Origin: Escherichia coli
GTDB taxonomy: Bacteria; Pseudomonadota; Gammaproteobacteria; Enterobacterales; Enterobacteriaceae
Assembly: GCF_003334385.1 (NCBI RefSeq)
Contig: NZ_QOWN01000022.1
DNA: 64,000 bases
Direction: 5' to 3' (one strand)
Position 1 is the first letter of the stretch; every line of letters starts with the position of its first letter. The notes under the pieces were generated by a model that made no database searches, was not told where the DNA came from, and saw only the letters and a list, made by a program, of their open reading frames with translations. Of this stretch, positions 3,017 to 57,437 are shown in pieces. A program made the position numbers and the translations under genes.

Positions 3017-3331
3017 ATGTTTAAAAAAGGCTTACTTGCTCTGGCACTGGTGTTTTCACTGCCCGTTTTCGCCGCTGAACACTGGATCGATGTTCGTGTT
3101 CCAGAGCAGTATCAGCAAGAGCACGTTCAGGGGGCCATCAATATTCCCCTGAAGGAAGTGAAAGAGCGCATTGCCACCGCCGTTCCGGATAAAAACGACA
3201 CCGTGAAAGTGTATTGCAATGCCGGACGCCAGTCAGGGCAAGCAAAAGAGATCCTTAGCGAGATGGGATATACCCACGTTGAGAACGCCGGTGGCCTGAA
3301 AGACATCGCAATGCCGAAGGTCAAAGGTTAA
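3017..3331 (+). CDS. pspE: periplasmic rhodanese (thiosulfate sulfurtransferase)
   Basis: 104-aa ORF with signal peptide and rhodanese active-site Cys (CNAGRQS). Confidence 0.92.
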   Translation: MFKKGLLALALVFSLPVFAAEHWIDVRVPEQYQQEHVQGAINIPLKEVKERIATAVPDKNDTVKVYCNAGRQSGQAKEILSEMGYTHVENAGGLKDIAMPKVKG

Positions 3332-3344
3332 AAGAATTCACCAT

Positions 3345-3373
3345 GAGCGGCGCTTATGCGCCGTTTTTTTTTC
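3345..3373 (+). terminator. intrinsic terminator after pspE
   Basis: GC hairpin gcggcgc-ttat-gcgccg followed by T9 run. Confidence 0.8.
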
Positions 3374-3543
3374 TGTCACACCTTATTTACATCCCCATAG
3401 ATTATTTGCGTCAGCTCACAAATACGCTTTTTCCCTGGTAAAAAATGATTTCCTGCGTGACTAAAACCCTTGTGCTCAATTGACAGTTTATTTTCTGCGG
3501 AGTAGTCTCTCGTTTCATGGGACCGCTACCACGGAAAGGCAAC

Positions 3544-5223
3544 ATGAAACAGAAAATTACGGATTACCTGGACGAAATCTACGGTGGAACATTTACCGCA
3601 ACTCATTTACAGAAACTTGTAACGCGTCTTGAGAGTGCGAAACGATTAATTACACAGCGACGTAAAAAACACTGGGATGAAAGTGATGTCGTGTTAATTA
3701 CCTATGCCGATCAATTTCACAGCAATGATTTAAAACCATTACCCACATTTAATCAGTTTTACCATCAATGGCTGCAAAGCATTTTTTCACATGTTCATTT
3801 GTTGCCGTTTTATCCATGGTCATCTGATGATGGCTTTTCGGTAATTGATTATCATCAGGTCGCCAGTGAAGCGGGGGAGTGGCAGGATATTCAGCAACTC
3901 GGTGAATGCAGTCATTTAATGTTTGATTTTGTCTGCAACCATATGTCGGCAAAAAGTGAATGGTTTAAAAACTATTTACAACAGCATCCAGGTTTTGAAG
4001 ATTTTTTTATTGCCGTTGACCCGCAAACCGATCTCAGCGCCGTCACTCGCCCGCGTGCGTTACCGTTATTAACGCCATTCCAGATGCGCGATCATTCAAC
4101 GCGCCATTTATGGACCACCTTTAGTGACGATCAAATTGACCTGAATTACCGTAGCCCTGAAGTGTTGCTGGCGATGGTGGATGTTTTACTCTGTTACCTT
4201 GCGAAAGGTGCTGAGTATGTCCGCCTGGATGCCGTTGGCTTTATGTGGAAAGAGCCGGGAACAAGCTGCATCCATCTGGAAAAAACACATCTGATTATCA
4301 AACTGTTACGGTCGATTATTGATAACGTTGCGCCAGGTACAGTGATCATTACCGAGACCAATGTTCCGCATAAAGACAACATTGCTTACTTTGGCGCAGG
4401 CGATGACGAAGCACATATGGTGTACCAGTTCTCGCTGCCGCCACTGGTGCTGCATGCGGTGCAAAAACAGAACGTTGAGGCGCTTTGTGCGTGGGCGCAA
4501 AACCTGACACTACCTTCCAGCAACACCACCTGGTTTAACTTCCTCGCCTCTCACGATGGCATCGGGCTAAACCCGCTACGGGGCTTGTTGCCTGAAAGCG
4601 AAATATTAGAGCTGGTCGAGGCGTTACAGCAGGAAGGTGCATTAGTAAACTGGAAAAATAATCCCGACGGTACACGCAGTCCGTATGAAATAAATGTGAC
4701 CTATATGGATGCGTTAAGCCGCCGTGAGAGTAGCGATGAAGAACGTTGCGCCAGGTTTATCCTTGCCCATGCGATTTTGTTAAGTTTCCCCGGTGTGCCA
4801 GCGATATATATTCAAAGTATTCTTGGCTCGCGTAATGATTACGCAGGTGTCGAAAAACTCGGATATAACCGTGCGATTAACCGTAAAAAATATCACAGTA
4901 AAGAGATAACCCGAGAACTGAACGATGAAGCTACATTAAGGCATGCGGTATATCATGAGTTGTCGCGTTTAATTACACTTCGTCGCAGCCATAACGAGTT
5001 TCATCCGGATAATAATTTTACCATTGATACGATTAATTCATCCGTAATGCGTATTCAAAGAAGTAACGCTGATGGTAATTGTCTGACTGGATTGTTTAAT
5101 GTCAGTAAAAATATTCAGCATGTAAATATTACTAATCTGCATGGTCGGGATCTGATTAGTGAAGTTGATATATTGGGTAATGAAATAACGCTGCGCCCCT
5201 GGCAGGTTATGTGGATTAAATAA
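3544..5223 (+). CDS. ycjM: GH13-family sucrose-phosphorylase-like enzyme (glucosylglycerate phosphorylase)
   Basis: ORF track 3517..5223; start placed at internal ATG 3544 (MKQKITDYL) with GGAAAGG RBS; synteny. Confidence 0.88.
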   Translation: MKQKITDYLDEIYGGTFTATHLQKLVTRLESAKRLITQRRKKHWDESDVVLITYADQFHSNDLKPLPTFNQFYHQWLQSIFSHVHLLPFYPWSSDDGFSVIDYHQVASEAGEWQDIQQLGECSHLMFDFVCNHMSAKSEWFKNYLQQHPGFEDFFIAVDPQTDLSAVTRPRALPLLTPFQMRDHSTRHLWTTFSDDQIDLNYRSPEVLLAMVDVLLCYLAKGAEYVRLDAVGFMWKEPGTSCIHLEKTHLIIKLLRSIIDNVAPGTVIITETNVPHKDNIAYFGAGDDEAHMVYQFSLPPLVLHAVQKQNVEALCAWAQNLTLPSSNTTWFNFLASHDGIGLNPLRGLLPESEILELVEALQQEGALVNWKNNPDGTRSPYEINVTYMDALSRRESSDEERCARFILAHAILLSFPGVPAIYIQSILGSRNDYAGVEKLGYNRAINRKKYHSKEITRELNDEATLRHAVYHELSRLITLRRSHNEFHPDNNFTIDTINSSVMRIQRSNADGNCLTGLFNVSKNIQHVNITNLHGRDLISEVDILGNEITLRPWQVMWIK

Positions 5224-6549: not shown

Positions 6550-7431
6550 ATGAACAGGCTTTTTTCAGGTCGTTCCGATATGCCCTTTGCGCTGCTGCTT
6601 CTCGCGCCCAGCTTATTACTGCTGGGCGGTCTGGTGGCGTGGCCGATGGTGTCGAATATCGAAATCAGTTTTTTACGTCTGCCGCTCAATCCCAACATCG
6701 AGTCAACGTTTGTTGGGGTGAGCAACTATGTGCGTATCCTCTCCGATCCCGGCTTCTGGCATTCGCTGTGGATGACGGTCTGGTATACCGCGCTGGTGGT
6801 GGCGGGCAGCACCGTGCTCGGGCTGGCGGTGGCGATGTTTTTCAACCGCGAGTTCCGCCTGCGCAAAACCGCGCGTTCGCTGGTGATCCTCTCCTACGTA
6901 ACGCCGTCCATTTCGCTGGTGTTCGCCTGGAAATACATGTTCAACAACGGCTACGGCATTGTTAACTACCTCGGCGTCGATCTTCTGCATCTCTATGAGC
7001 AGGCACCGCTGTGGTTCGATAATCCGGGCAGTAGCTTTGTGCTGGTGGTGCTGTTCGCCATCTGGCGCTACTTCCCGTATGCCTTTATCTCGTTTCTGGC
7101 GATTTTGCAGACCATCGACAAATCGCTGTACGAAGCGGCAGAGATGGATGGCGCTAATGCCTGGCAACGGTTTCGTATCGTCACGCTGCCCGCAATTATG
7201 CCGGTCCTGGCGACGGTGGTGACACTGCGCACCATCTGGATGTTCTACATGTTCGCGGATGTTTATTTGCTGACGACCAAGGTCGATATTCTCGGTGTAT
7301 ATCTCTACAAAACCGCCTTTGCCTTTAATGATTTAGGAAAAGCGGCGGCGATCTCGGTGGTGCTCTTCATCATTATTTTCGCTGTCATTCTGCTGACCAG
7401 GAAACGGGTGAACCTCAATGGCAACAAATAA
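6550..7431 (+). CDS. ycjO: sugar ABC transporter permease
   Basis: 293-aa multi-TM ORF. Confidence 0.9.
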   Translation: MNRLFSGRSDMPFALLLLAPSLLLLGGLVAWPMVSNIEISFLRLPLNPNIESTFVGVSNYVRILSDPGFWHSLWMTVWYTALVVAGSTVLGLAVAMFFNREFRLRKTARSLVILSYVTPSISLVFAWKYMFNNGYGIVNYLGVDLLHLYEQAPLWFDNPGSSFVLVVLFAIWRYFPYAFISFLAILQTIDKSLYEAAEMDGANAWQRFRIVTLPAIMPVLATVVTLRTIWMFYMFADVYLLTTKVDILGVYLYKTAFAFNDLGKAAAISVVLFIIIFAVILLTRKRVNLNGNK

Positions 7432-8260
7432 ACGCACACTCAGTCGCATCGGTTTTTACTGCGGGCTGGCGCTGTTTCTCATCATCACGCTGTTTCCATT
7501 TTTTGTGATGCTGATGACCTCGTTCAAGGGCGCGAAAGAGGCGATCTCACTGCATCCTACGCTGCTGCCGCAGCAGTGGACGCTGGAGCATTACGTCGAC
7601 ATTTTTAACCCGATGATTTTCCCGTTTGTCGACTACTTCCGTAACAGTCTGGTGGTGTCTGTGGTTTCATCCGTGGTGGCGGTATTCCTCGGCATTCTTG
7701 GGGCTTACGCGCTTTCCCGCCTGCGCTTTAAAGGTCGGATGACCATCAACGCCAGCTTTTACACGGTGTATATGTTCTCTGGCATTTTGCTGGTGGTGCC
7801 GCTTTTCAAAATCATCACCGCGCTTGGCATTTACGACACTGAGATGGCGCTGATCATCACCATGGTGACGCAAACTCTGCCCACCGCCGTGTTTATGCTG
7901 AAAAGCTACTTCGACACCATCCCCGATGAGATCGAAGAAGCGGCGATGATGGATGGCCTCAACCGTCTGCAAATTATCTTCCGCATCACCGTGCCGTTGG
8001 CGATGTCCGGGCTGATATCCGTGTTCGTCTACTGCTTTATGGTGGCGTGGAACGACTATCTGTTTGCGTCGATTTTCCTCTCCAGCGCCAGCAATTTCAC
8101 CTTACCGGTGGGCCTGAACGCGCTGTTCAGTACGCCAGATTACATCTGGGGACGGATGATGGCGGCCTCACTGGTGACCGCATTGCCGGTGGTGATTATG
8201 TATGCGCTTTCGGAACGTTTTATTAAGAGTGGTTTGACCGCCGGTGGCGTGAAGGGCTAA
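7418..8260 (+). CDS. ycjP: sugar ABC transporter permease
   Basis: 280-aa multi-TM ORF overlapping ycjO end. Confidence 0.9.
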   Translation: MATNKRTLSRIGFYCGLALFLIITLFPFFVMLMTSFKGAKEAISLHPTLLPQQWTLEHYVDIFNPMIFPFVDYFRNSLVVSVVSSVVAVFLGILGAYALSRLRFKGRMTINASFYTVYMFSGILLVVPLFKIITALGIYDTEMALIITMVTQTLPTAVFMLKSYFDTIPDEIEEAAMMDGLNRLQIIFRITVPLAMSGLISVFVYCFMVAWNDYLFASIFLSSASNFTLPVGLNALFSTPDYIWGRMMAASLVTALPVVIMYALSERFIKSGLTAGGVKG

Positions 8261-8290
8261 AGCGGCCAGTTTCTTTACAAGGAGTTTTAA

Positions 8291-9343
8291 ATGAAAAAGT
8301 TAGTAGCCACAGCACCGCGTGTTGCTGCGCTGGTTGAGTATGAAGATCGGGCGATTTTAGCTAATGAAGTGAAGATCCGCGTGCGTTTCGGCGCACCGAA
8401 ACACGGAACGGAAGTGGTCGACTTCCGCGCCGCCAGCCCGTTTATTGATGAAGACTTTAACGGCGAATGGCAGATGTTCACTCCGCGTCCGGCAGATGCG
8501 CCGCGCGGCATTGAGTTTGGCAAATTCCAGCTTGGCAACATGGTGGTTGGCGACATTATCGAGTGCGGCAGCGACGTTACCGACTACGCGGTGGGCGACA
8601 GCGTATGCGGCTACGGCCCGCTCTCCGAGACGGTCATCATTAACGCAGTGAATAACTACAAGCTGCGCAAAATGCCGCAAGGCAGCTCCTGGAAAAACGC
8701 CGTCTGCTACGACCCGGCGCAGTTTGCCATGAGCGGCGTGCGCGATGCCAACGTGCGCGTAGGGGATTTTGTGGTGGTGGTAGGGCTTGGCGCAATCGGT
8801 CAAATTGCCATCCAACTGGCTAAACGCGCTGGCGCTTCTGTGGTGATTGGCGTCGATCCTATCGCCCATCGCTGTGATATTGCCCGTCGCCACGGCGCGG
8901 ATTTCTGCCTTAACCCCATCGGCACTGATGTAGGTAAAGAGATCAAAACGCTGACCGGCAAGCAGGGTGCCGATGTGATTATCGAAACCAGCGGCTACGC
9001 CGACGCGCTGCAATCGGCGCTCCGCGGTCTGGCTTATGGCGGCACCATCTCCTATGTCGCGTTTGCCAAGCCGTTTGCCGAAGGTTTTAACCTCGGACGC
9101 GAAGCGCATTTCAATAACGCCAAAATTGTCTTCTCTCGCGCGTGCAGCGAACCGAACCCGGATTATCCGCGCTGGAGCCGCAAGCGTATTGAAGAAACCT
9201 GTTGGGAACTGCTGATGAACGGTTATCTCAATTGCGAAGATTTAATCGACCCGGTGGTGACCTTTGCCAATAGCCCGGAAAGCTATATGCAGTATGTCGA
9301 CCAGCATCCGGAACAGAGCATCAAAATGGGCGTTACGTTTTAA
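8291..9343 (+). CDS. ycjQ: Zn-dependent sugar dehydrogenase (MDR family)
   Basis: 350-aa ORF with Rossmann motif GLGAIG. Confidence 0.88.
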   Translation: MKKLVATAPRVAALVEYEDRAILANEVKIRVRFGAPKHGTEVVDFRAASPFIDEDFNGEWQMFTPRPADAPRGIEFGKFQLGNMVVGDIIECGSDVTDYAVGDSVCGYGPLSETVIINAVNNYKLRKMPQGSSWKNAVCYDPAQFAMSGVRDANVRVGDFVVVVGLGAIGQIAIQLAKRAGASVVIGVDPIAHRCDIARRHGADFCLNPIGTDVGKEIKTLTGKQGADVIIETSGYADALQSALRGLAYGGTISYVAFAKPFAEGFNLGREAHFNNAKIVFSRACSEPNPDYPRWSRKRIEETCWELLMNGYLNCEDLIDPVVTFANSPESYMQYVDQHPEQSIKMGVTF

Positions 9344-11215: not shown

Positions 11216-13479
11216 CCAGGCCAGTAACGTTATCAGAACCCCATTTCAGCCAGCATACCCTGAACAAGTATGCATCGCTGATGGCGCAGGGGAACGGCTA
11301 TCTTGGGCTTCGCGCCAGCCATGAAGAAGATTACACGCGCCAGACGCGAGGGATGTATCTGGCGGGGCTGTATCATCGGGCGGGAAAAGGTGAAATCAAC
11401 GAACTGGTGAACCTGCCTGATGTCGTGGGGATGGAGATTGCCATAAATGGTGAGGTTTTCTCGTTATCCCACGAAGCCTGGCAGCGTGAGCTTGACTTTG
11501 CCAGTGGCGAATTACGCCGCAATGTTGTCTGGCGTACCAGCAACGGCTCAGGTTACACCATCGCCAGCCGTCGCTTTGTTTCGGCAGACCAACTGCCGCT
11601 CATTGCGCTGGAAATCACTATTACGCCACTGGACGCCGACGCGTCAGTGCTGATTTCAACAGGCATTGACGCCACGCAAACCAATCACGGTCGCCAACAT
11701 CTCGACGAAACCCAGGTGCGGGTGTTTGGTCAGCATCTGATGCAGGGGAGCTACACCACCCAGGATGGACGCAGTGATGTGGCCATCAGCTGTTGCTGTA
11801 AGGTGAGCGGTGATGTGCAGCAATGCTATACCGCCAAAGAGCGCCGTTTACTGCAACATACCAGTGCGCAGCTTCATGCAGGCGAGACAATGACGTTGCA
11901 AAAACTGGTGTGGATCGACTGGCGGGATGACAGGCAAGCTGCTTTAGACGAGTGGGGCAGCGCGTCGCTTCGCCAGCTTGAAATGTGCGCGCAGCAGAGT
12001 TACGACCAACTTCTTGCAGCATCAACAGAAAACTGGCGTCAATGGTGGCAGAAACGTCGTATCACGGTAAATGGCGGCGAAGCGCACGATCAGCAAGCGT
12101 TAGATTATGCGCTTTATCATCTGCGCATCATGACGCCTGCCCACGACGAGCGCAGCAGCATTGCGGCAAAAGGCTTAACCGGCGAAGGCTACAAAGGCCA
12201 CGTTTTCTGGGATACAGAAGTATTTTTGTTACCGTTTCATCTGTTTAGCGATCCGACGGTTGCCCGAAGTTTACTGCGTTATCGCTGGCACAACTTGCCA
12301 GGCGCGCAGGAGAAAGCGCGACGCAACGGCTGGCAGGGCGCGCTATTTCCGTGGGAAAGCGCGCGCAGCGGCGAAGAAGAGACGCCGGAATTTGCCGCCA
12401 TTAACATTCGCACCGGGCTGCGGCAAAAAGTGGCCTCGGCGCAGGCGGAACATCATCTGGTGGCCGATATCGCCTGGGCGGTTATTCAATACTGGCAGAC
12501 CACGGGGGATGAAAGTTTCATTGCGCATGAAGGCATGGCGCTACTTCTGGAGACGGCAAAGTTCTGGATTAGCCGCGCGGTGAGAGTTAACGATCGTCTG
12601 GAAATTCATGATGTTATTGGGCCAGACGAATATACCGAACATGTCAATAATAATGCATACACCAGCTATATGGCCCGCTACAACGTTCAACAGGCGCTGA
12701 ATATTGCCCGCCAGTTCGGCTGTAGCGACGATGCGTTTATCCATCGCGCCGAAATGTTCCTCAAAGAGCTATGGATGCCAGAAATTCAGCCCGACGGCGT
12801 TTTGCCGCAGGATGATTCGTTTATGGCTAAGCCGGCGATTAATCTGGCGAAATACAAAGCGGCGGCGGGGAAGCAAACCATACTGCTGGATTATTCACGC
12901 GCAGAAGTGAACGAGATGCAGATCCTCAAACAAGCTGATGTGGTGATGCTCAATTACATGCTGCCGGAGCAGTTCTCAGCGGCATCGTGTCTTGCCAATC
13001 TGCAATTTTATGAACCGCGCACTATTCACGACTCGTCATTAAGTAAAGCAATCCACGGCATTGTTGCCGCACGCTGTGGCCTGCTGACCCAAAGTTATCA
13101 GTTCTGGCGCGAGGGGACTGAAATCGATCTTGGTGCTGATCCGCATAGTTGTGATGATGGTATCCATGCTGCCGCAACTGGCGCTATCTGGCTGGGGGCG
13201 ATTCAGGGTTTTGCCGGGGTGAGCGTGCGTGACGGTGAATTGCATCTCAATCCGGCGTTACCTGAGCAGTGGCAACAGTTGTCTTTCCCTCTGTTCTGGC
13301 AGGGCTGCGAATTACAGGTCACTCTTGACGCGCAGCGTATTGCGATTCGAACTTCTGCGCCCGTTTCACTGCGTTTGAACGGTCAGCTTATAACCGTGGC
13401 TGAAGAATCTGTTTTCTGTTTGGGTGATTTTATTTTGCCCTTCAATGGGACCGCTACCAAACATCAGGAGGATGAATGA
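11212..13479 (+). CDS. ycjT: GH65-family glycoside phosphorylase (kojibiose phosphorylase)
   Basis: 755-aa ORF overlapping ycjS stop; synteny. Confidence 0.9.
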
Positions 13480-49966: not shown

Positions 49967-50137
49967 TTAAAGTTCATGTGCCATCTGGTCTTTTTCGGCA
50001 CAAGCTTCACTGCAATATTTTCTCGGTTCGTCTTTTGATAAAATCCCGTGCATGAAGTGAAGCATTCTTTCAATAGCTTTGCTTTTTTCAACGTCTTTTT
50101 TGCAAAGGTGGTAAGCACATTTTATTTTCTTAGTCAT
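49967..50137 (-). CDS. ydaE: small Cys-rich zinc-binding protein (56 aa)
   Basis: minus-strand [59 protein letters not shown], below ORF-track cutoff. Confidence 0.7.
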   Translation of the reverse strand: MTKKIKCAYHLCKKDVEKSKAIERMLHFMHGILSKDEPRKYCSEACAEKDQMAHEL

Positions 50138-50358
50138 CACCATGACTCCGCCTTTACAGGTAAACCATCACGACCGAGGAAGACTTTAATCATGCGGTCA
50201 GTAATGCATGTTTTTGTGGTCAGGTTACGAATATATAGTTTTCGCTTTTTAATATTGTTTGCCGAGGCAATATATGTCCGGCCTTCATGAAGAACATAAT
50301 CGCCAGGAGTCACACACTGACGTGGTATTTCATCAGTTCCGAAGTGATGTGCAATCAT
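50137..50358 (-). CDS. kilR: FtsZ-targeting killing protein KilR
   Basis: ORF track 50137..50370; start [14 protein letters not shown]. Confidence 0.85.
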
Positions 50359-50799
50359 AATTATCTCCATTTTTACAAATGAACTTTGTTGATGCGGTGC
50401 CTGGTGCCTCCAGGTGACTGCAACCAGTTAACAATTACAGTCGGCTTTCCCACCCAAACCAATAAGGACTAACATGACTTTTAACTGTGCCACGTGCGCT
50501 TAGCCGCATTCACCGCATCACAAAATTCACTTTAAAAAGGGCGGACATCAGCCGAACTTCAAGAAAAAAACTGATGCCGCCAGGACTACACACAGCAATG
50601 TCGTTATTTACAACCGGAGGCGCACTCCCACCATTTAAATTTAACAGACAAGACCGACTCTTTATGGATATCGGAAATGCGCCTTCGTGTTGTGCCCGGT
50701 TTTATTTCACCACCTCCGGGCTTCGGTGGTCTCGGCTATACCCCTACAGCGAGAGCTTGTGTTAACATTTCAATACCCTTACAGTTGAGAGTTATTGAT

Positions 50800-51288
50800 A
50801 TGTTGGATGTATTTACTCCATTGTTGAAACTTTTTGCTAACGAGCCACTCGAAAGACTTATGTATACGATTATCATTTTTGGTCTCACTCTCTGGCTGAT
50901 ACCGAAAGAGTTTACTGTCGCATTCAATGCTTATACTGAAATACCTTGGCTCTTTCAGATTATCGTTTTTGCCTTTTCTTTCGTGGTCGCCATTTCCTTC
51001 TCAAGATTGCGAGCACATATTCAAAAGCATTATTCATTACTACCAGAGCAACGAGTATTGCTTCGTTTATCTGAGAAAGAAATCGCTGTATTTAAAGATT
51101 TCCTTAAAACAGGAAATCTTATTATCACTTCTCCTTGCCGTAACCCGGTTATGAAAAAATTAGAACGGAAGGGCATCATTCAACATCAGAGTGATAGCGC
51201 AAACTGTTCTTATTATCTCGTCACCGAAAAATACTCCCATTTTATGAAGTTATTCTGGAACAGCAGGAGTAGACGTTTTAATCGTTAG
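50800..51288 (+). CDS. sieB: superinfection exclusion protein SieB
   Basis: ORF track 50677..51288; start at internal Met MLDVFTPLLK; TM segments. Confidence 0.8.
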   Translation: MLDVFTPLLKLFANEPLERLMYTIIIFGLTLWLIPKEFTVAFNAYTEIPWLFQIIVFAFSFVVAISFSRLRAHIQKHYSLLPEQRVLLRLSEKEIAVFKDFLKTGNLIITSPCRNPVMKKLERKGIIQHQSDSANCSYYLVTEKYSHFMKLFWNSRSRRFNR

Positions 51289-51440
51289 CTTACTGTGTGC
51301 TTCTCCAACCATCGGCGCGCACCAGTTTCGGTTTTAAATATTTTGCTTTTTGTATACGTCATCGCGGTGAACGTTCCATCCTGGTTGGGGAACACGCCGC
51401 ACACCAGGGATTCGTTATTGCGGAGGTCGATTTTTTGCAT
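51285..51440 (-). CDS. ydaF: Rac prophage small protein (51 aa)
   Basis: minus-strand ORF MQKIDLRNNESLVCGVFPNQDGTFTAMTYTKSKIFKTETGARRWLEKHTVS. Confidence 0.65.
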   Translation of the reverse strand: MQKIDLRNNESLVCGVFPNQDGTFTAMTYTKSKIFKTETGARRWLEKHTVS

Positions 51441-51450
51441 TTTTCGCACC

Positions 51451-51585
51451 TCACATTTTGTTGTTGCGGATAGAGGCTTCTGCCTGCCAGAGATCCCAGT
51501 CGTTGCTGCGTAAAGCCTGCACAGCCTGGTTGTAAGTGATGCCGCAACAATCCATCAAATACTGAACTACTTCGTAATGCACCAT
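51451..51585 (-). CDS. ydaG: Rac prophage small protein (44 aa)
   Basis: minus-strand ORF MVHYEVVQYLMDCCGITYNQAVQALRSNDWDLWQAEASIRNNKM. Confidence 0.65.
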   Translation of the reverse strand: MVHYEVVQYLMDCCGITYNQAVQALRSNDWDLWQAEASIRNNKM

Positions 51586-51764
51586 CTTATCTCTCCCCTT
51601 AACGCCGGGTGGCGGAACTAACTGCTGCACTGCAAAATTTGAATCCCGCCGTCATGTTCATACGCCTCGGGCTGGCTACTTAACCCCTTACCACTGCCTG
51701 GTAACTCGAAGTATTGCCCGGCGTTCTGTGGGGCGGGGTGGGTGGTATGCTGGAACTATAGGTA

Positions 51765-51820
51765 ATGCCTAATTGATTGTCAATAGGTTATGCCTAATGT
51801 TTTGAGCGTAACCTAATAGG
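51765..51820. promoter_or_regulatory. operator-like repeat set on the 3' side of racR (OL-like)
   Basis: TAGG/CCTA-arm dyads; 24-nt block (51777-51800) is the inverted copy, 23/24 identical, of 52421-52444. Confidence 0.5.
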
Positions 51821-51893
51821 TGATGGCGACAGCAGAAAGTGATGGGGGGGTTAAATAACGGAATCCAGGAGTTTTCCGTCAGACCATATAAGT

Positions 51894-52370
51894 TTAAGTT
51901 CCAGTTTTTGTGATGTTCTGGCTTTTCCGTTCAGATTCTAGAGCTTTCAGATACTTACCCACTTTCATTTCCATCGCTGCTATGTAGGCGCGAACATCGT
52001 GGTCAACCCAATCTGGTTCTGTAGCATTTCCAGATAACAGGAAAGCTACAATCGCTCTTATTTCATCAGAGGCTGCTTGATAAAGGTTGTTTATATCTAA
52101 AAGTTCACTTTTTGTATCTGAATTGGTGGGGGTTGGTATGGGGTATTCGTTAAGCCCCCAATGCTCTGGACCAACAACATCAGAAAAGAAACGCCATAAT
52201 TCTGGAAGTTTATCTTTACTTATAGAGCCTTTCTTAATCCAGTCATAAATTGATGGTGGTTGGACTTTGAAGTGGCGTGCGACCTCCGCCTTTGATTTGA
52301 CGGATCCCGATGCGATTTTTTTGTTAATGGCCTGCTCTATCGCTCGGCCTAAGTCTTTACCACTAAGCAT
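51894..52370 (-). CDS. racR: prophage repressor RacR
   Basis: 158-aa ORF with N-terminal HTH, divergent from ydaS. Confidence 0.88.
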   Translation of the reverse strand: MLSGKDLGRAIEQAINKKIASGSVKSKAEVARHFKVQPPSIYDWIKKGSISKDKLPELWRFFSDVVGPEHWGLNEYPIPTPTNSDTKSELLDINNLYQAASDEIRAIVAFLLSGNATEPDWVDHDVRAYIAAMEMKVGKYLKALESERKSQNITKTGT

Positions 52371-52390
52371 TGCTTAATATTCTCCTATGC

Positions 52391-52465
52391 GCATTACATT
52401 AGGCAATCCCTACCCTTATCGCATTAGGCATAGCCTATTGACAATTGCGTTAGGCGTAGCCTAAT
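52391..52465. promoter_or_regulatory. racR/ydaS divergent promoter-operator region (OR-like)
   Basis: dyads TAGGC-N3-GCCTA (52424-52436) and TTAGGC-N2-AGCCTAA (52449-52463), half-site cattacattaggca, embedded TTGACA. Confidence 0.6.
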
Positions 52466-52493
52466 ATTTCTGTGTGTTTTTGGAGTTCATTCG

Positions 52494-52790
52494 ATGAAAA
52501 AAGAGAACTATTCATTCAAGCAAGCTTGTGCTGTTGTCGGTGGGCAATCAGCAATGGCTAGGCTTTTAGGTGTATCACCTCCAAGCGTAAATCAATGGAT
52601 CAAAGGGGTACGTCAATTGCCTGCCGAGAGATGTCCAGCAATTGAACGTGCAACAAGAGGTGAGGTTCTGTGCGAAGAACTTCGTCCTGATATTGACTGG
52701 TCATATTTACGACGTTCGGCATGTTGTTCGCAGAATATGTCAGTGAAGCAACTAAATGACAGTAACAAATCCTCATTTGATCATACCTGA
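52494..52790 (+). CDS. ydaS: Cro-like HTH protein
   Basis: 98-aa ORF immediately rightward of racR operators. Confidence 0.85.
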   Translation: MKKENYSFKQACAVVGGQSAMARLLGVSPPSVNQWIKGVRQLPAERCPAIERATRGEVLCEELRPDIDWSYLRRSACCSQNMSVKQLNDSNKSSFDHT

Positions 52791-52812
52791 AACATCAAGA
52801 GGCAAATGATTC

Positions 52813-53235
52813 ATGAAAATCAAGCATGAGCACATCGAATCAGTGTTGTTTGCCCTGGCAGCCGAAAAAGGGCAGGCATGGGTAGCCAATGCAATTACTG
52901 AAGAATATCTGCGCCAGGGGGGCGGCGAATTGCCCCTGGTTCCAGGCAAGGACTGGAACAATCAGCAGAATATCTATCACCGTTGGTTGAAAGGTGAAAC
53001 GAAAACGCAAAGAGAAAAAATTCAGAAGCTGATCCCAGCAATTCTGGCAATCCTTCCGCGCGAGCTGCGTCACCGATTCTGCATCTTCGATACCCTGGAA
53101 CGCCGTGCATTACTGGCGGCGCAGGAAGCGTTAAGTACGGCAATTGATGCGCATGATGATGCAGTCCAAGCCGTTTACCGGAAAGCGCATTTCAGCGGCG
53201 GCGGGTCTTCCGACGATTCTGTCATTGTTCATTAA
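52813..53235 (+). CDS. ydaT: Rac prophage protein YdaT
   Basis: 140-aa ORF; synteny. Confidence 0.85.
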   Translation: MKIKHEHIESVLFALAAEKGQAWVANAITEEYLRQGGGELPLVPGKDWNNQQNIYHRWLKGETKTQREKIQKLIPAILAILPRELRHRFCIFDTLERRALLAAQEALSTAIDAHDDAVQAVYRKAHFSGGGSSDDSVIVH

Positions 53236-53247
53236 GCAAAAGTTTCC

Positions 53248-54105
53248 ATGCTGTTTGTGCTTATTCTAAGCAACCGGGCAGCATCATACGGGGCAATTAT
53301 GGCCGCATTACCATACATGCAACTGTACATAGCTGATTACCTGGCTGACACCATGCATTTGTCAGCAGAGGAGCACGGTGCGTATTTGTTGCTGATGTTC
53401 AATTACTGGCAAACAGGAAAGCCAATACCCAAAAACAGGCTGGTAAAAATTGCCCGCCTGACTAACGAGCGATGGGCTGATGTTGAACCATCCTTGCGGG
53501 AGTTTTTTTGCGATAACGGCGAGGAATGGGTGCATCTTCGGATTGAGGAAGATCTGGCATCAGTCAGGGAAAAATTAACCAAAAAATCAGCCGCAGGAAA
53601 AGCATCGGTTCAGGCCAGAAGAAGCAGAAAGGAAGCAGATGTTCAAACAAAACAAGAGAGAAATTTAACAGGTGTTCAAACAGATGTTGAAGTGGTGTTT
53701 GAACATGATGTCAACACAAAGGCAACTAATAAAGATACAGATAAAGATCTAAAAACAGATCCCCCCCTAAATCCCCCCCGGGGGAATCGAGGTGTTAAAA
53801 AGTTTGACCCTCTGGATATTGCTTTGCCGAACTGGATTTCTGTCTCGCTTTGGCGTGAGTGGGTTGAATTTCGCCAGGCATTGCGTAAACCGATTCGAAC
53901 GGAGCAGGGCGCTAACGGGGCGATACGGGAGCTGGAAAAATTCCGCCAGCAGGGTTTTTCACCTGAGCAGGTGATTAGACACAGCATTGCCCATGAATAC
54001 CAGGGCTTGTTTGCGCCGAAAGGCGTTCGGCCTGAGACGTTGCTTCGACAGGTTAACACCGTCTCGTTTCCGGACAGTGCGATCCCACCAGGCTTCAGGG
54101 GGTAA
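53248..54105 (+). CDS. ydaU: replication-module protein (O-like position)
   Basis: 285-aa ORF; synteny. Confidence 0.8.
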   Translation: MLFVLILSNRAASYGAIMAALPYMQLYIADYLADTMHLSAEEHGAYLLLMFNYWQTGKPIPKNRLVKIARLTNERWADVEPSLREFFCDNGEEWVHLRIEEDLASVREKLTKKSAAGKASVQARRSRKEADVQTKQERNLTGVQTDVEVVFEHDVNTKATNKDTDKDLKTDPPLNPPRGNRGVKKFDPLDIALPNWISVSLWREWVEFRQALRKPIRTEQGANGAIRELEKFRQQGFSPEQVIRHSIAHEYQGLFAPKGVRPETLLRQVNTVSFPDSAIPPGFRG

Positions 54106-54111
54106 CGAAGC

Positions 54112-54858
54112 ATGAAAAATATTGCGACAGGCGGCGTTCTGGAACGTATCCGCAGACTGGCCCCGCCACATGTAACCGCGCCATTCAGGACGGTGGCGGA
54201 GTGGCGCGAGTGGCAACTTGCAGAAGGCCAGAAACGTTGTGAGGAGATCAACCGTCAGAATCGTCAGTTGCGGGTGGAAAAAATCCTGAATCGCTCCGGC
54301 ATCCAGTCGTTGCACCGCAAATGCTCGTTTTCGAATTACCAGGTGCAGAACGAAGGGCAGCGATACGCGTTGAGTCAGGCGAAATCCATCGCTGATGAAC
54401 TGATGACCGGGTGTACAAATTTTGCGTTCAGCGGAAAACCTGGTACCGGAAAAAACCATCTGGCGGCGGCTATCGGGAATCGCCTGCTGAAAGATGGCCA
54501 GACAGTGATTGTGGTTACCGTGGCTGATGTCATGAGTGCCCTACACGCCAGCTATGACGACGGGCAATCAGGCGAAAAATTTTTGCGGGAACTGTGCCAA
54601 GTGGATCTGCTGGTTCTTGATGAAATTGGCATTCAGCGCGAGACAAAAAACGAGCAGGTGGTGCTGCACCAGATTGTTGATCGCCGGACAGCGTCGATGC
54701 GCAGCGTGGGGATGCTGACAAACCTGAATTATGAGGCCATGAAAACATTGCTCGGCGAGAGGATTATGGATCGCATGACCATGAACGGCGGGCGATGGGT
54801 GAATTTTAACTGGGAGAGCTGGCGTCCGAATGTCGTCCAGCCAGGAATTGCGAAGTAA
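54112..54858 (+). CDS. ydaV: DnaC-like helicase loader (AAA+)
   Basis: 248-aa ORF with Walker [11 protein letters not shown] and Walker B LLVLDEIG. Confidence 0.88.
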
Positions 54859-54880
54859 TTTTTACCGGGAGAAAAATTTA

Positions 54881-55642
54881 ATGGAGACTGTTTTTGACGC
54901 ACTGAAAGCAATGGGAAAAGCTACATCCATAGAACTTGCTGCGCGACTTGATATCAGCCGTGAAGAAGTGCTGAACGAACTATGGGAACTGAAAAAGGCT
55001 GGTTTCGTTGATAAAAGCGCGTACACCTGGCGTGTGGCTGATAACAACGTTCAGCAGGAACAGCCAGCGCCGGCAGAACTGCCGGAAGAAACTACCACGG
55101 CAACAGTCGCGAAAATTTCAGAGAGCGATTTAACTGCGACGATTGAACAACGTGGTCCACTAACTGCGGATGAACTGGCTACGTTGTTCGGTACCACATC
55201 CCGCAAAGTGGCTTCAACGCTGGCAATGGCAATCAGCAAAGCTCGTCTGATTCGCGTTAATCAGAACGGTAAATTTCGTTACTGCATGCCGGGCGGTAAT
55301 TTACCAGCAGAGCCGAAAGCTGCATCGGTAGCGGAAACAGATGGTAAAGCCTTTCCTCAGCTAGCCGGTGTTGCGTTACCAGTACAGGAAGCTGCAACAC
55401 AGGAAGATATTAAAACAGAAACTGTGGCGGACATTGTGCAGTCGTTGCCATCGTTTACTGAAACGCAAGCGGATAACCTGATTTTACCATCGCTGCATAT
55501 GGCAAACCGTGAACTGCGTCGGGCGAAAAATCATGTCCAGAAGTGGGAGCGAGTCTGCGCCGCGCTGCGGGAGCTGAACAAGCACCGGGATATTGTTCGA
55601 CAGATTACTGATTCTTCCCGCCGTGTTGTATCGGAAAAGTGA
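54881..55642 (+). CDS. ydaW: prophage protein with N-terminal winged-helix-like region, full length
   Basis: ORF track 54830..55642; start at ATG 54881 ([13 protein letters not shown]) avoids overlap with ydaV. Confidence 0.6.
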
Positions 55643-55657
55643 TTGCCGAAGGCGCTT

Positions 55658-56089
55658 ATGGCAAAAGTATTTACACAAGAAGAGCGAGAAAAAATTAAAG
55701 GGCAGGTTGTTGAGCTAGTACGCCGGAGTGGGCGCGAGACGTTACGGCAACTGGAAGCCAAGACAGGTGCGACAAGATATCTGATGAGCGTTCTCGCCAG
55801 AGAGCTGGTTGCCAGTGGCGATGTATACAACTCTGGTTACGGGTTATTCCCGTCTGAACAGGCTCGTAAGGACTGGCAAAATGCCCGCAAAAAACTATCT
55901 AGGGCAAAGGTGAAGAAACCATCTGTGGTTGATCCGGACCTTATCTGGTCATTACCAGACGGAGAAATACGCCGCTACGACAGGCGTCTGAACATAATCT
56001 GTCGCGAGTGCCGGAAGAGCGAAGTTATGCAGCGTGTGCTGGCGTTTTATCAGAATGGTTTTCGAGAGAGGCTTGGAGATCAGGGATGA
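55658..56089 (+). CDS. hypothetical prophage protein (about 143 aa)
   Basis: ORF track 55643..56089; GC-typical codon usage, abuts ydaW stop; no recognisable motif except basic stretch and CRECRK. Confidence 0.5.
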   Translation: MAKVFTQEEREKIKGQVVELVRRSGRETLRQLEAKTGATRYLMSVLARELVASGDVYNSGYGLFPSEQARKDWQNARKKLSRAKVKKPSVVDPDLIWSLPDGEIRRYDRRLNIICRECRKSEVMQRVLAFYQNGFRERLGDQG

Positions 56090-56282
56090 ATAGAACGATG
56101 AAGGATGGAAGCTACATATTCTCGGTACTAAGATTTATTTTTCTGACACAAAATGACCATTTGGCGTTACATAATCCCAAAAAAACGTATCAAAAATCTC
56201 AAAATGCGTTACGATTAGAGAGTATTTTGATTCTGCGTGCTCATTTTTTGATTGCTGTGGCTTTTTGTTGTGGGAGTGTTGA

Positions 56283-57437
56283 ATGGATTATTTATCAGAA
56301 GTGTTAAAAATCATTGAAGGTGCAACAAAGGCAAATGCTTCGATGGCTAGTAATTATGCTGGGTTGCTGGCAGATAAGCTCGAACAAAAAGGGGAGGTCA
56401 AGCAAGCCAGAATGATAAGAGAAAGGTTGCTTAGAGCTCCCCAGGCGTTGGCAGGAGCTCAAAGGGCTGGAGGTGGGATATCTCTGGGCTCATTACCGGT
56501 AGATATTGATAGTCGACTCAACACTGTTGATGTCAGTTATCCTAAATTAGACAGTTCAGAGATTTTTCTGCCTGCAGCAATCAGTACCCGTGTTGAAGAG
56601 TTTATCACTAATGTTCAACGTTATGATGAGTTTGTTAAAGCTGATGCAGCATTGCCGAGTCGTATGCTCGTGTATGGAAAGCCAGGAACAGGTAAGACTA
56701 TGTTATCTAAGTACATCGCTACCCGCTTAGATTTTCCACTTCTTACAGTGCGTTGCGATACTTTGATTAGTAGTTTATTGGGACAAACCAGCAAAAATCT
56801 TAGACAGGTTTTCGATTATGTAATGCAGAGGCCATCAGTGCTTTTTTTAGACGAATTTGATGCTTTAGCTGGAGCAAGAGGTAATGAGAGAGATATAGGT
56901 GAGCTTCAGCGAGTTGTCATTTCACTATTGCAGAATATGGATGCGGCATCAGAGGATACGGTAATTATTGCCTCAACTAACCATGAGCAACTTCTGGATC
57001 CTGCAATCTGGAGGCGATTTAGCTTCAGAATTCCAATGCCTCTGCCTGACATACATCAGAGAGAGTTAATTTGGAAAAATCGTTTAAAGAATATGATATG
57101 TAGCGATCTAGATTTAAGTGATTTATCAAGAAAATCGGAAGGATTATCCGGAGCAATAATTGAACAGGTGAGCTTGGATGCACGTAGGGATGCAGTTATT
57201 GAAGGTGCAAGTGTGATAAATCACCACAAATTGTATAGGCGTTTGTATCTTGCTCAATCGCTTATGGAAGGTGTAAATTTAAGCACTTACGAAGATGAAA
57301 TTCGTTGGTTACGTTCTAAAGATAAAAAATTATTTTCTATCAGAGTTCTTGCTAATTTGTACAAACTTACATCAAGAGTAATTTCAAACATTCTGAAGGA
57401 GTCAGGAGCATATGAGCAGAAGGGGTACACAGTTTAG
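56283..57437 (+). CDS. AAA+ ATPase (classic AAA clade), first gene of cargo cassette
   Basis: 384-aa ORF; Walker A GKPGTGKT (56676-56699), Walker B VLFLDEFD (about 56841-56861), sensor-1 IASTN, Arg finger region PAIWRRF; AT-rich. Confidence 0.85.
   Translation: MDYLSEVLKIIEGATKANASMASNYAGLLADKLEQKGEVKQARMIRERLLRAPQALAGAQRAGGGISLGSLPVDIDSRLNTVDVSYPKLDSSEIFLPAAISTRVEEFITNVQRYDEFVKADAALPSRMLVYGKPGTGKTMLSKYIATRLDFPLLTVRCDTLISSLLGQTSKNLRQVFDYVMQRPSVLFLDEFDALAGARGNERDIGELQRVVISLLQNMDAASEDTVIIASTNHEQLLDPAIWRRFSFRIPMPLPDIHQRELIWKNRLKNMICSDLDLSDLSRKSEGLSGAIIEQVSLDARRDAVIEGASVINHHKLYRRLYLAQSLMEGVNLSTYEDEIRWLRSKDKKLFSIRVLANLYKLTSRVISNILKESGAYEQKGYTV

Follow-up and report, generated by a model that had tools for sequence, protein, structure and literature searches.

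The open reading frame (ORF) directly upstream of the ietAS genes is very probably the prophage's own Ren-family gene. IetAS would be a moron in the adjoining slot, and the spacer between the two would be composite, with a cassette-own leader that likely holds a weak promoter. This reading, obtained by comparing sequences, concerns a 64,000-nt stretch of Escherichia coli DNA (the window, to whose positions all coordinates refer unless stated otherwise). The ORF itself is ordinary; a cargo hotspot next to it and phased repeats in the ietA leader are mildly interesting side results.

The ORF closes the replication module of a Rac-type prophage

Between 51.9 and 61.5 kb, the window holds the early right arm of a lambdoid prophage of the Rac type. 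First come a racR-like repressor gene (minus strand), then ydaS/cro-like, ydaT, the O-like ydaU, the DnaC-like ydaV and the gene of a DUF1627 protein of 270 aa. The DUF977 ORF and a 193-bp spacer follow, then the AAA+ ATPase and S8 protease genes, and after these a NinB-like gene, ybcO and Q. The genes relevant here are:

54830-55642, plus strand: DUF1627 protein, 270 aa (PHROG 630, E 9e-128; RefSeq 'DUF1627 domain-containing protein' in the identical locus)
55658-56089, plus strand: DUF977/Ren-like ORF, 143 aa from the ATG (Pfam PF06163, PHROG 142)
56283-57437, plus strand: ietA (iteA), AAA+ ATPase (NF042959, PADLOC IetA, Pfam AAA at residues 128-253)
57412-59676, plus strand: ietS (iteS), S8 subtilase (NF042956, PADLOC IetS, Pfam Peptidase_S8 at residues 268-544)
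60093-60692, plus strand: NinB-like (DUF1367) gene, first of the nin region and right-hand backbone (PHROG 319 NinB/Orf, E 2.2e-69)

The DUF977 gene is the last of the replication module ydaS-ydaT-ydaU-ydaV-DUF1627-DUF977 and lies ahead of the ninB-like gene, at whose position LY180 has a 'DUF1367 family protein'. The induced phage vB_EcoS-683R6 (GenBank ON470595) shows the same gene order across this region, and its DUF977 and IetA proteins are identical to those studied here. Otherwise collinear with the window, this phage has a tRNA-Thr and a tRNA-Gly ~350 nt past Q (positions 13215-13365 of our locus L005). ARAGORN returned zero tRNAs for window positions 50000-64000, and the two sequences thus differ downstream of Q (window 61521-64000).

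The penultimate gene of the module had been labelled ydaW in the preliminary description of this region. We correct this label to a full-length DUF1627 protein, a relative of K-12 YdaW, as the K-12 ydaW gene is a truncated copy. K-12 Rac matches the window at 97.5% up to 55330, from where a deletion fuses the truncated ydaW to rzpR. With this deletion, the remark that the DUF977 ORF has no counterpart in K-12 Rac is correct in a trivial sense. In the DUF1627 protein (54830-55642) itself, weak signals at residues 18-65 and 100-151 were Ren-like (PHROG 142, 7e-5) and ArsR/MarR-like HTH. This protein might be paralogous to the DUF977/Ren family, with winged helices in tandem.

The ORF belongs to the DUF977/lambda Ren family

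The ORF abuts the upstream stop codon (TGA, 55640-55642), as had been described, and is a real gene. Directly 3' of this stop, a TTG at 55643 offers an alternative start yielding 148 aa, while the ATG at 55658, which has GAAGG before it, yields 143 aa; the ORF ends with the stop at 56087-56089. The ATG form is the one annotated by RefSeq in an identical locus, and homologues begin with MAKVFT. In comparison to five E. coli alleles, we obtained a dN/dS of 0.04-0.10, i.e., strong purifying selection.

The DUF977 model (PF06163) matches the ORF over its full length (i-Evalue 3.7e-28; residues 6-140 versus model positions 1-133 of 134), and the identical protein is listed as 'DUF977 family protein' in RefSeq. 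Furthermore, the ORF matches PHROG 142, 'Ren-like exclusion protein', with an E-value of 2.6e-46 over profile positions 1-113 of 116. Lambda Ren matches PHROG 142 with 1.6e-41 and hence falls into the same profile family. Pairwise identity of the two proteins is limited to ~20 residues, where the C-terminal NIICRECRKSEVMQRVLAFY of the ORF aligns to NLVFKECRQSAAMKRVLAVY of lambda Ren (Ren residues 73-92; E 2e-6). The conserved C-terminal motif of the DUF977 ORF reads ECRxSxxMQRVLAFY; lambda Ren shares it in the form ECRxSxxM+RVLA+Y, together with a putative N-terminal winged-helix-like region. The proteins differ in length, with 96 aa for lambda Ren and 143 aa for the DUF977 ORF, which has a ~45-residue insert (G-FPSEQA...W...YDR). 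Both genes occupy the same position, as the lambda map order O-P-ren-ninB compares to ydaU-ydaV-DUF1627-DUF977-[cargo]-ninB-like in the window, although lambda employs an O/P replication module and the window Rac-type YdaU/YdaV/DUF1627.

Homologous ORFs appear in phage records under the names LygF, 'Ren-like exclusion protein' and 'DUF977 family protein', the first of which goes back to a Salmonella Enteritidis difference region (PMC4490851). The DUF977/'LygF' protein of Salmonella Enteritidis Sdr I and Rac-like phages matches the ORF over its full length and shows no difference of substance, except for the cassette-specific C-terminal tail of the ORF. With 104 clusters when 1.84 billion proteins are grouped at 50% identity, the family is narrow. 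Judging from the profile matches, the ORF encodes an ordinary representative of a known prophage family, DUF977/lambda Ren.

To model the protein, we employed AF2 with an alignment of 23 sequences, as the prediction from the single sequence was poor (pLDDT 64). Residues 7-84 reached a pLDDT of ~88 and residues 136-143 one below 50. The N-terminus is modelled as helices 7-24, 29-36 and 40-53 and strands 57-59 and 62-64, i.e., helix-helix-helix-hairpin. In a Foldseek search against the PDB, the top matches were all wHTH regulators, but weak ones (E ~0.03, TM ~0.35), and a profile search against the PDB gave E-values of 0.002 or weaker. The N-terminus is thus predicted to be a winged-helix domain whose matches to known wHTH structures are weak. 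The homology and structure searches that the preliminary description had proposed for the ORF returned a DUF977/PHROG 142 match and this winged-helix model.

Lambda Ren mediates escape from Rex exclusion and interacts with Rex proteins (bioRxiv 10.1101/2021.04.19.439022), a function known for lambda itself. By homology, the DUF977 protein would serve as a lambda Ren-like accessory of replication or exclusion escape rather than in IetAS function. As its gene sits in the pR operon, the product would be expected only during lytic growth.

The neighbouring genes form a two-gene IetAS cassette

IetAS (IteA/IteS) was reportedly described as an anti-phage system by Gao et al. in 2020. The ietA product of the window scored 526.6 bits against NCBIfam NF042959 (cutoff 510) and an E-value of 8.9e-143 with PADLOC IetA; the ietS product reached 1042.8 bits against NF042956 (cutoff 900) and 1.7e-300 with PADLOC IetS. 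Like other IetAS systems, the pair is an operon of two genes in which the ATPase precedes the S8 protease, here with an overlap of 26 nt. Both the PADLOC and the NCBIfam models define IetAS as two genes, and the DUF977 ORF stands outside the system. The two-gene ietAS of ECOR52, placed under pBAD, acts alone when cloned (bioRxiv 10.1101/2022.08.21.504612). The IetAS homologue sgiAT of SGI1 also consists of two genes and shows toxin-antitoxin behaviour (PMC5006074), and ietAS of pTiC58 goes back to Yamamoto 2009, as cited in PMC5006074. Neither IetA nor IetS contains a recognisable DNA-binding Pfam domain, the first ~100 residues of IetA being without Pfam assignment, and we found no solved structure for either protein. 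In strain F2_81 (NZ_CP043542.1, equivalent of window 56090-59900), an IS3-family element interrupts an otherwise identical cassette.

The GC content differs along the locus, amounting to 50.3% in the DUF977 ORF, 35.2% in the spacer and 40% in ietA/ietS. The backbone-like composition attributed earlier to the ORF is thereby confirmed.

DUF977 and IetAS are distributed separately

Of 5426 complete E. coli genomes, 4147 contain DUF977 DNA, at 7229 places in total, and ~4070 genomes carry it without IetAS. The match extends beyond DUF977 into the spacer in only 78 genomes, which is also the count for the cassette and for the junction piece 56054-56175. Within E. coli, this ietAS allele adjoins DUF977 in all of its 78 genomes. 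A DUF977 homologue was absent near IetAS at the thrW (tRNA-Thr) island of E. coli CT282, on plasmids from Acidovorax, Dongshaea, Enterococcus faecium and Rhizobium, and at the viral loci L037-L044 (IMG/VR contigs). Co-occurrence with the pair across independent loci, as expected of a component, was therefore not seen. The preliminary description had offered two possible roles for the ORF, one within the ATPase-protease module (regulator or third component) and one as phage backbone, to which it inclined for its GC composition. Against the module role, it had named its presence in prophages lacking the cassette and its absence from other loci with the pair. Both were observed. Its occurrence in thousands of cassette-less prophages (4147 genomes with DUF977 versus 78 with the cassette) and its absence at the CT282 and plasmid IetAS loci mark the ORF as phage backbone and leave the component role unsupported.

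The only other genus in which we found a close cassette is represented by a metagenome-assembled genome of Citrobacter freundii (L007), whose IetA is 91% identical. Here, the gene directly upstream of the cassette encodes a distant Ren-family protein (PHROG 2391, 4e-42; weak PHROG 142 match; hhalign probability 97.5%). As DNA homology of the two loci begins only at 56161, we read the Citrobacter locus as the same positional slot in a different phage. We attribute the recurrence of a Ren-like neighbour, twice independently, to a slot common to different lambdoid phages, and a functional link may exist as well. A scan of genome contigs with one IetA protein returned a single locus, and a scan of viral contigs for leader words returned E. 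coli-type copies only.

IetAS occupies a cargo slot between the DUF977 gene and the nin region

Homology to cassette-less prophages stops at 56053 (56069 in one of them) and resumes at 59692 (LY180). The left joint thus lies inside the last 12 codons of the ORF, after the conserved ...RVLAFYQ, so that these codons and the stop belong to the cargo. The two ends are marked by the following features:

56054-56089, plus strand: final 12 codons of the ORF with its stop, contributed by the cargo and ending in the tail NGFRERLGDQG* (from the end of homology at 56053)
59684-59717, no strand assigned: terminator-like hairpin with a 15-bp stem, 8 nt past the ietS stop and straddling 59692 (terminator scan)

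The C-terminal tails of DUF977 differ among alleles, and the tail is disordered in the AF2 model. An exact 10-nt repeat, TTTATCAGAA, is present at the left breakpoint (56046-56055) and again in ietA codons 4-6 (56291-56300); it could be microhomology or chance, the chance expectation being roughly estimated at 0.05-0.1. At the right end, an Rfam scan of 55400-60200 at E<=1 gave just a sub-threshold Leu-leader match, which is the terminator hairpin. The AT-rich segment that follows ietS (59677-60092; 34% GC) starts with this hairpin and is conserved backbone in ~750 E. coli genomes, including K-12 derivatives, where it is unannotated. In other prophages, hokD directly precedes this segment; the window is without hokD.

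Loci with the cassette vary by up to 7% in the backbone upstream and are nearly invariant over 56021-56497. Moreover, the cassette occurs in at least two prophage backbones with different immunity and nin modules. A variable upstream backbone next to an invariant segment, and the occurrence in more than one backbone, indicate that the cassette has spread by homologous recombination through its flanks. IetAS would have entered as a 3.64-kb moron (56054-59691) into a slot between the DUF977 gene and the terminator/nin region. The boundaries for cloning are thereby fixed at 56054-59691, with a core of 56161-59676.

The same slot holds NsnABC (Menshen) in LY180 (L002, 5622-8825), an RmrA (Rosmer) pair in FMU073332 (L008, 6945-8670) and a PD-Lambda-2_C/cll pair in O111 strain 1056-1 (L011, 5791-7426). 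Further cargos comprise QueH, an alpha/beta hydrolase and small hypothetical genes, and hokD usually comes next after the cargo. In this small sample of ten loci, we counted about nine different cargos, and four of the ten loci had matches to known or candidate defence systems. By its conserved flanks and variable cargo in these loci, the slot is a defence/moron hotspot. It resembles the P2/P4 hotspots (Rousset 2022, PMC9122126; Vassallo 2022, PMC9519451) in having conserved phage flanks around a short variable defence slot. Unlike these, it lies in Rac-type or lambdoid prophages, the latter of which the two studies mention in passing only (PMC9122126, PMC9519451), and has a ren-like 3' end as left anchor and a terminator or hokD before the nin region as right anchor. 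With ~7000 instances in complete E. coli genomes, the ren-like 3' end as a recombination anchor provides a cheap place to seek new defence genes.

The spacer is composite and would carry the promoter of the cassette

The spacer between the ORF and ietA (56090-56282) was confirmed as AT-rich, with 193 bp and 35.2% GC for the ~190 bp described before. It is composed of 71 distal bp of junction DNA and 122 proximal bp of cassette leader, with the following elements:

56054-56160, plus strand: junction segment made up of the ORF tail and 71 distal bp of spacer (exclusive to the 78 E. coli genomes with ietAS)
56161-56282, plus strand: cassette-intrinsic ietA leader that can be read as ~five head-to-tail 21-nt units (Citrobacter L007 homology begins exactly at 56161)
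56178-56217, plus strand: conserved 40-nt block with an A7 tract and candidate -35/-10 (local alignment with the CT282 leader, PWM scan)
56273-56277, plus strand: strong Shine-Dalgarno sequence, GGGAG, 5 nt ahead of the ietA start codon ATG (read from the sequence)

The junction segment is not shared with the Citrobacter cassette and shows no significant lag-21 periodicity when taken alone. The leader, in turn, is 82% identical between the window and Citrobacter, versus just 65% for ietA third codon positions. Local alignment with the CT282 leader, where the ietA DNA is 65% identical, recovered the 40-nt block with a score of 31 (shuffles 17.6 +/- 2.5; 0 of 500 reach 31). A global MAFFT alignment of the three leaders missed this block, due to the ~24 nt shorter 5' UTR of CT282. 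Within the block we identified a candidate promoter with GTATCA as -35 (56187-56192; 3/6 positions), a 17-nt spacer and TACGAT as -10 (56210-56215; 4/6), for which CT282 has GCTACA-17-TACAAT in the same register. The PWM scan also gave an overlapping alternative, TCAAAA-18-TATTTT. A scan for consensus sigma-70 promoters returned zero sites in the spacer. On the plus strand, no terminator was found between the ORF and ietA, so that read-through from pR would also be possible. The presumed 5' UTR folds no better than its shuffles (z = 0.07), which argues against a riboswitch- or attenuator-like structure.

Taken together, 56161-56282 is probably a promoter/operator. The earlier expectation that the spacer holds the promoter of the cassette is plausible for its proximal 122 bp, where the conserved block and the weak -35/-10 reside; it does not extend to the distal 71 bp, which are junction DNA, or to a promoter of consensus sigma-70 type. 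The leader would supply a weak, probably autoregulated promoter and make ietAS expression in the lysogen independent of pR.

Several other explanations of the locus deserve consideration. The DUF977 protein could be a dedicated regulator or third component of IetAS, e.g., a winged-helix protein that represses or activates at the ietA leader, as its predicted winged-helix N-terminus, its co-oriented position directly upstream of ietA with no terminator between, its adjacency in 78/78 E. coli genomes and the distant Ren-like gene upstream of the Citrobacter cassette might suggest. We consider this very improbable, since the gene outnumbers the cassette by 7229 places to 78 and lies beside many unrelated cargos, IetAS exists at a tRNA island and on plasmids without a homologue, and CT282, without DUF977, retains both the leader block and its repeats. 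Moreover, GC content and breakpoints show separate histories, for a system that PADLOC and NCBIfam define by two genes. This negative outcome guards against listing a backbone gene as the third component of IetAS.

With the ORF read as the prophage's own Ren-family gene, the spacer might still be devoid of a functional promoter, in which case ietAS would be transcribed via pR read-through or an external activator only and be silent in the repressed lysogen. The missing consensus promoter and terminator are compatible with such a scenario, as is the report that the putative promoter of sgiAT itself did not suffice for post-segregational killing, for which positive activation was proposed (PMC5006074). 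We regard it as quite unlikely, because conservation of the leader block exceeds neutral expectation in CT282, a non-phage context without pR, and because the leader has diverged less from Citrobacter than the third positions of ietA (82% versus 65% identity). On general grounds, a prophage defence gene is also useful only when expressed in the lysogen. Finally, the spacer could encode a 73-aa protein (56086-56307), whose start would overlap the DUF977 stop in ATGA. The frame is open across the whole spacer, bears the annotation 'kinase (fragment)' in ON470595, and its first ~40 codons of the shared part are open in Citrobacter. It is scarcely credible as a gene, given that RefSeq does not call it, that its N-terminal third is missing at the Citrobacter locus, where a 1-nt indel shifts the frame and ~17/30 shared codons are identical at the protein level, and that all three frames are full of stops in CT282. 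We rejected this ORF, unconserved as a protein in Citrobacter and CT282, as probably spurious.

Most ietA leaders appear to contain repeats in a 20-21-nt phase

Written in rows of 21, the window leader aligns the cores CGTTAC/CGTATC/CGTTAC/TGATTC/TGATTG in register. Its self-match at lag 21 amounts to 43.6%, compared to 27.1 +/- 4.3% in dinucleotide shuffles (P<0.0005); if any lag from 6 to 45 is allowed, P is 0.01 for the leader and <0.002 for the whole spacer. Leaders phased at 20-21 nt were found in the window, in Citrobacter (L007, 4684-4805) and at L032, L037-L040, L042, L044, L006, L033, L034 and L085/L086. The L037 leader, for instance, contains TTTGAAAC/TTTGATAC four times at 20-21-nt spacing, and that of L040 contains ATCGTCCA. 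Over 13 lineages, the mean max(z20,z21) was 2.11, versus 0.67 in 72 natural upstream controls (P=6e-5), and 12 of the 13 reached at least 1.2; against AT-rich controls, P was 7e-4. The IetAS leaders showed no matching peak at lags 10-11 and 31-32. The repeat motif varies between IetAS lineages, and its phasing would extend from Enterobacteriaceae as far as Rhizobium and Enterococcus.

The lag of 20/21 was picked after seeing the data, and of the leaders fetched later, the L085/L086 lineage is phased and L084 is not. A repeat statistic based on copy number and word counts only was not significant for most leaders, unlike the lag autocorrelation. The phasing might thus be a by-product of AT-rich composition or promoter architecture and not reflect protein-binding sites, a view to which the post hoc lag, the word counts, the unphased one of two later lineages and the degenerate motifs all lend weight. 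It appears unlikely to us, as the window leader and spacer exceed dinucleotide shuffles even when any lag from 6 to 45 is allowed, as 12 of 13 lineages reach a max(z20,z21) of at least 1.2, and as the leaders score above natural and AT-rich controls alike, without peaks at lags 10-11 or 31-32. In view of the post hoc lag and the split among the later leaders, we treat the leader phasing as a lead rather than a result.

Tentatively, the ietA leader might represent about five direct repeats 20-21 bp apart, i.e., two helical turns on one DNA face, bound by oligomeric IetA or IetS at their own promoter. The toxin-antitoxin behaviour of IetAS in the literature makes autoregulation through such an operator array a natural hypothesis. 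In the IetAS studies consulted here, we found no description of 21-nt phased repeats. If true, an obscure ATPase-protease defence/TA system would gain an autoregulatory or DNA-tethered sensing step, of which we found no description either. The phased repeats are a concrete and testable handle on the control of the system.

One of the phased loci, the E. faecium plasmid L034, carries TIR-domain genes on both sides of its IetAS-like pair (3113-3898 and 7974-8375). The pair and these genes may constitute a composite defence locus.
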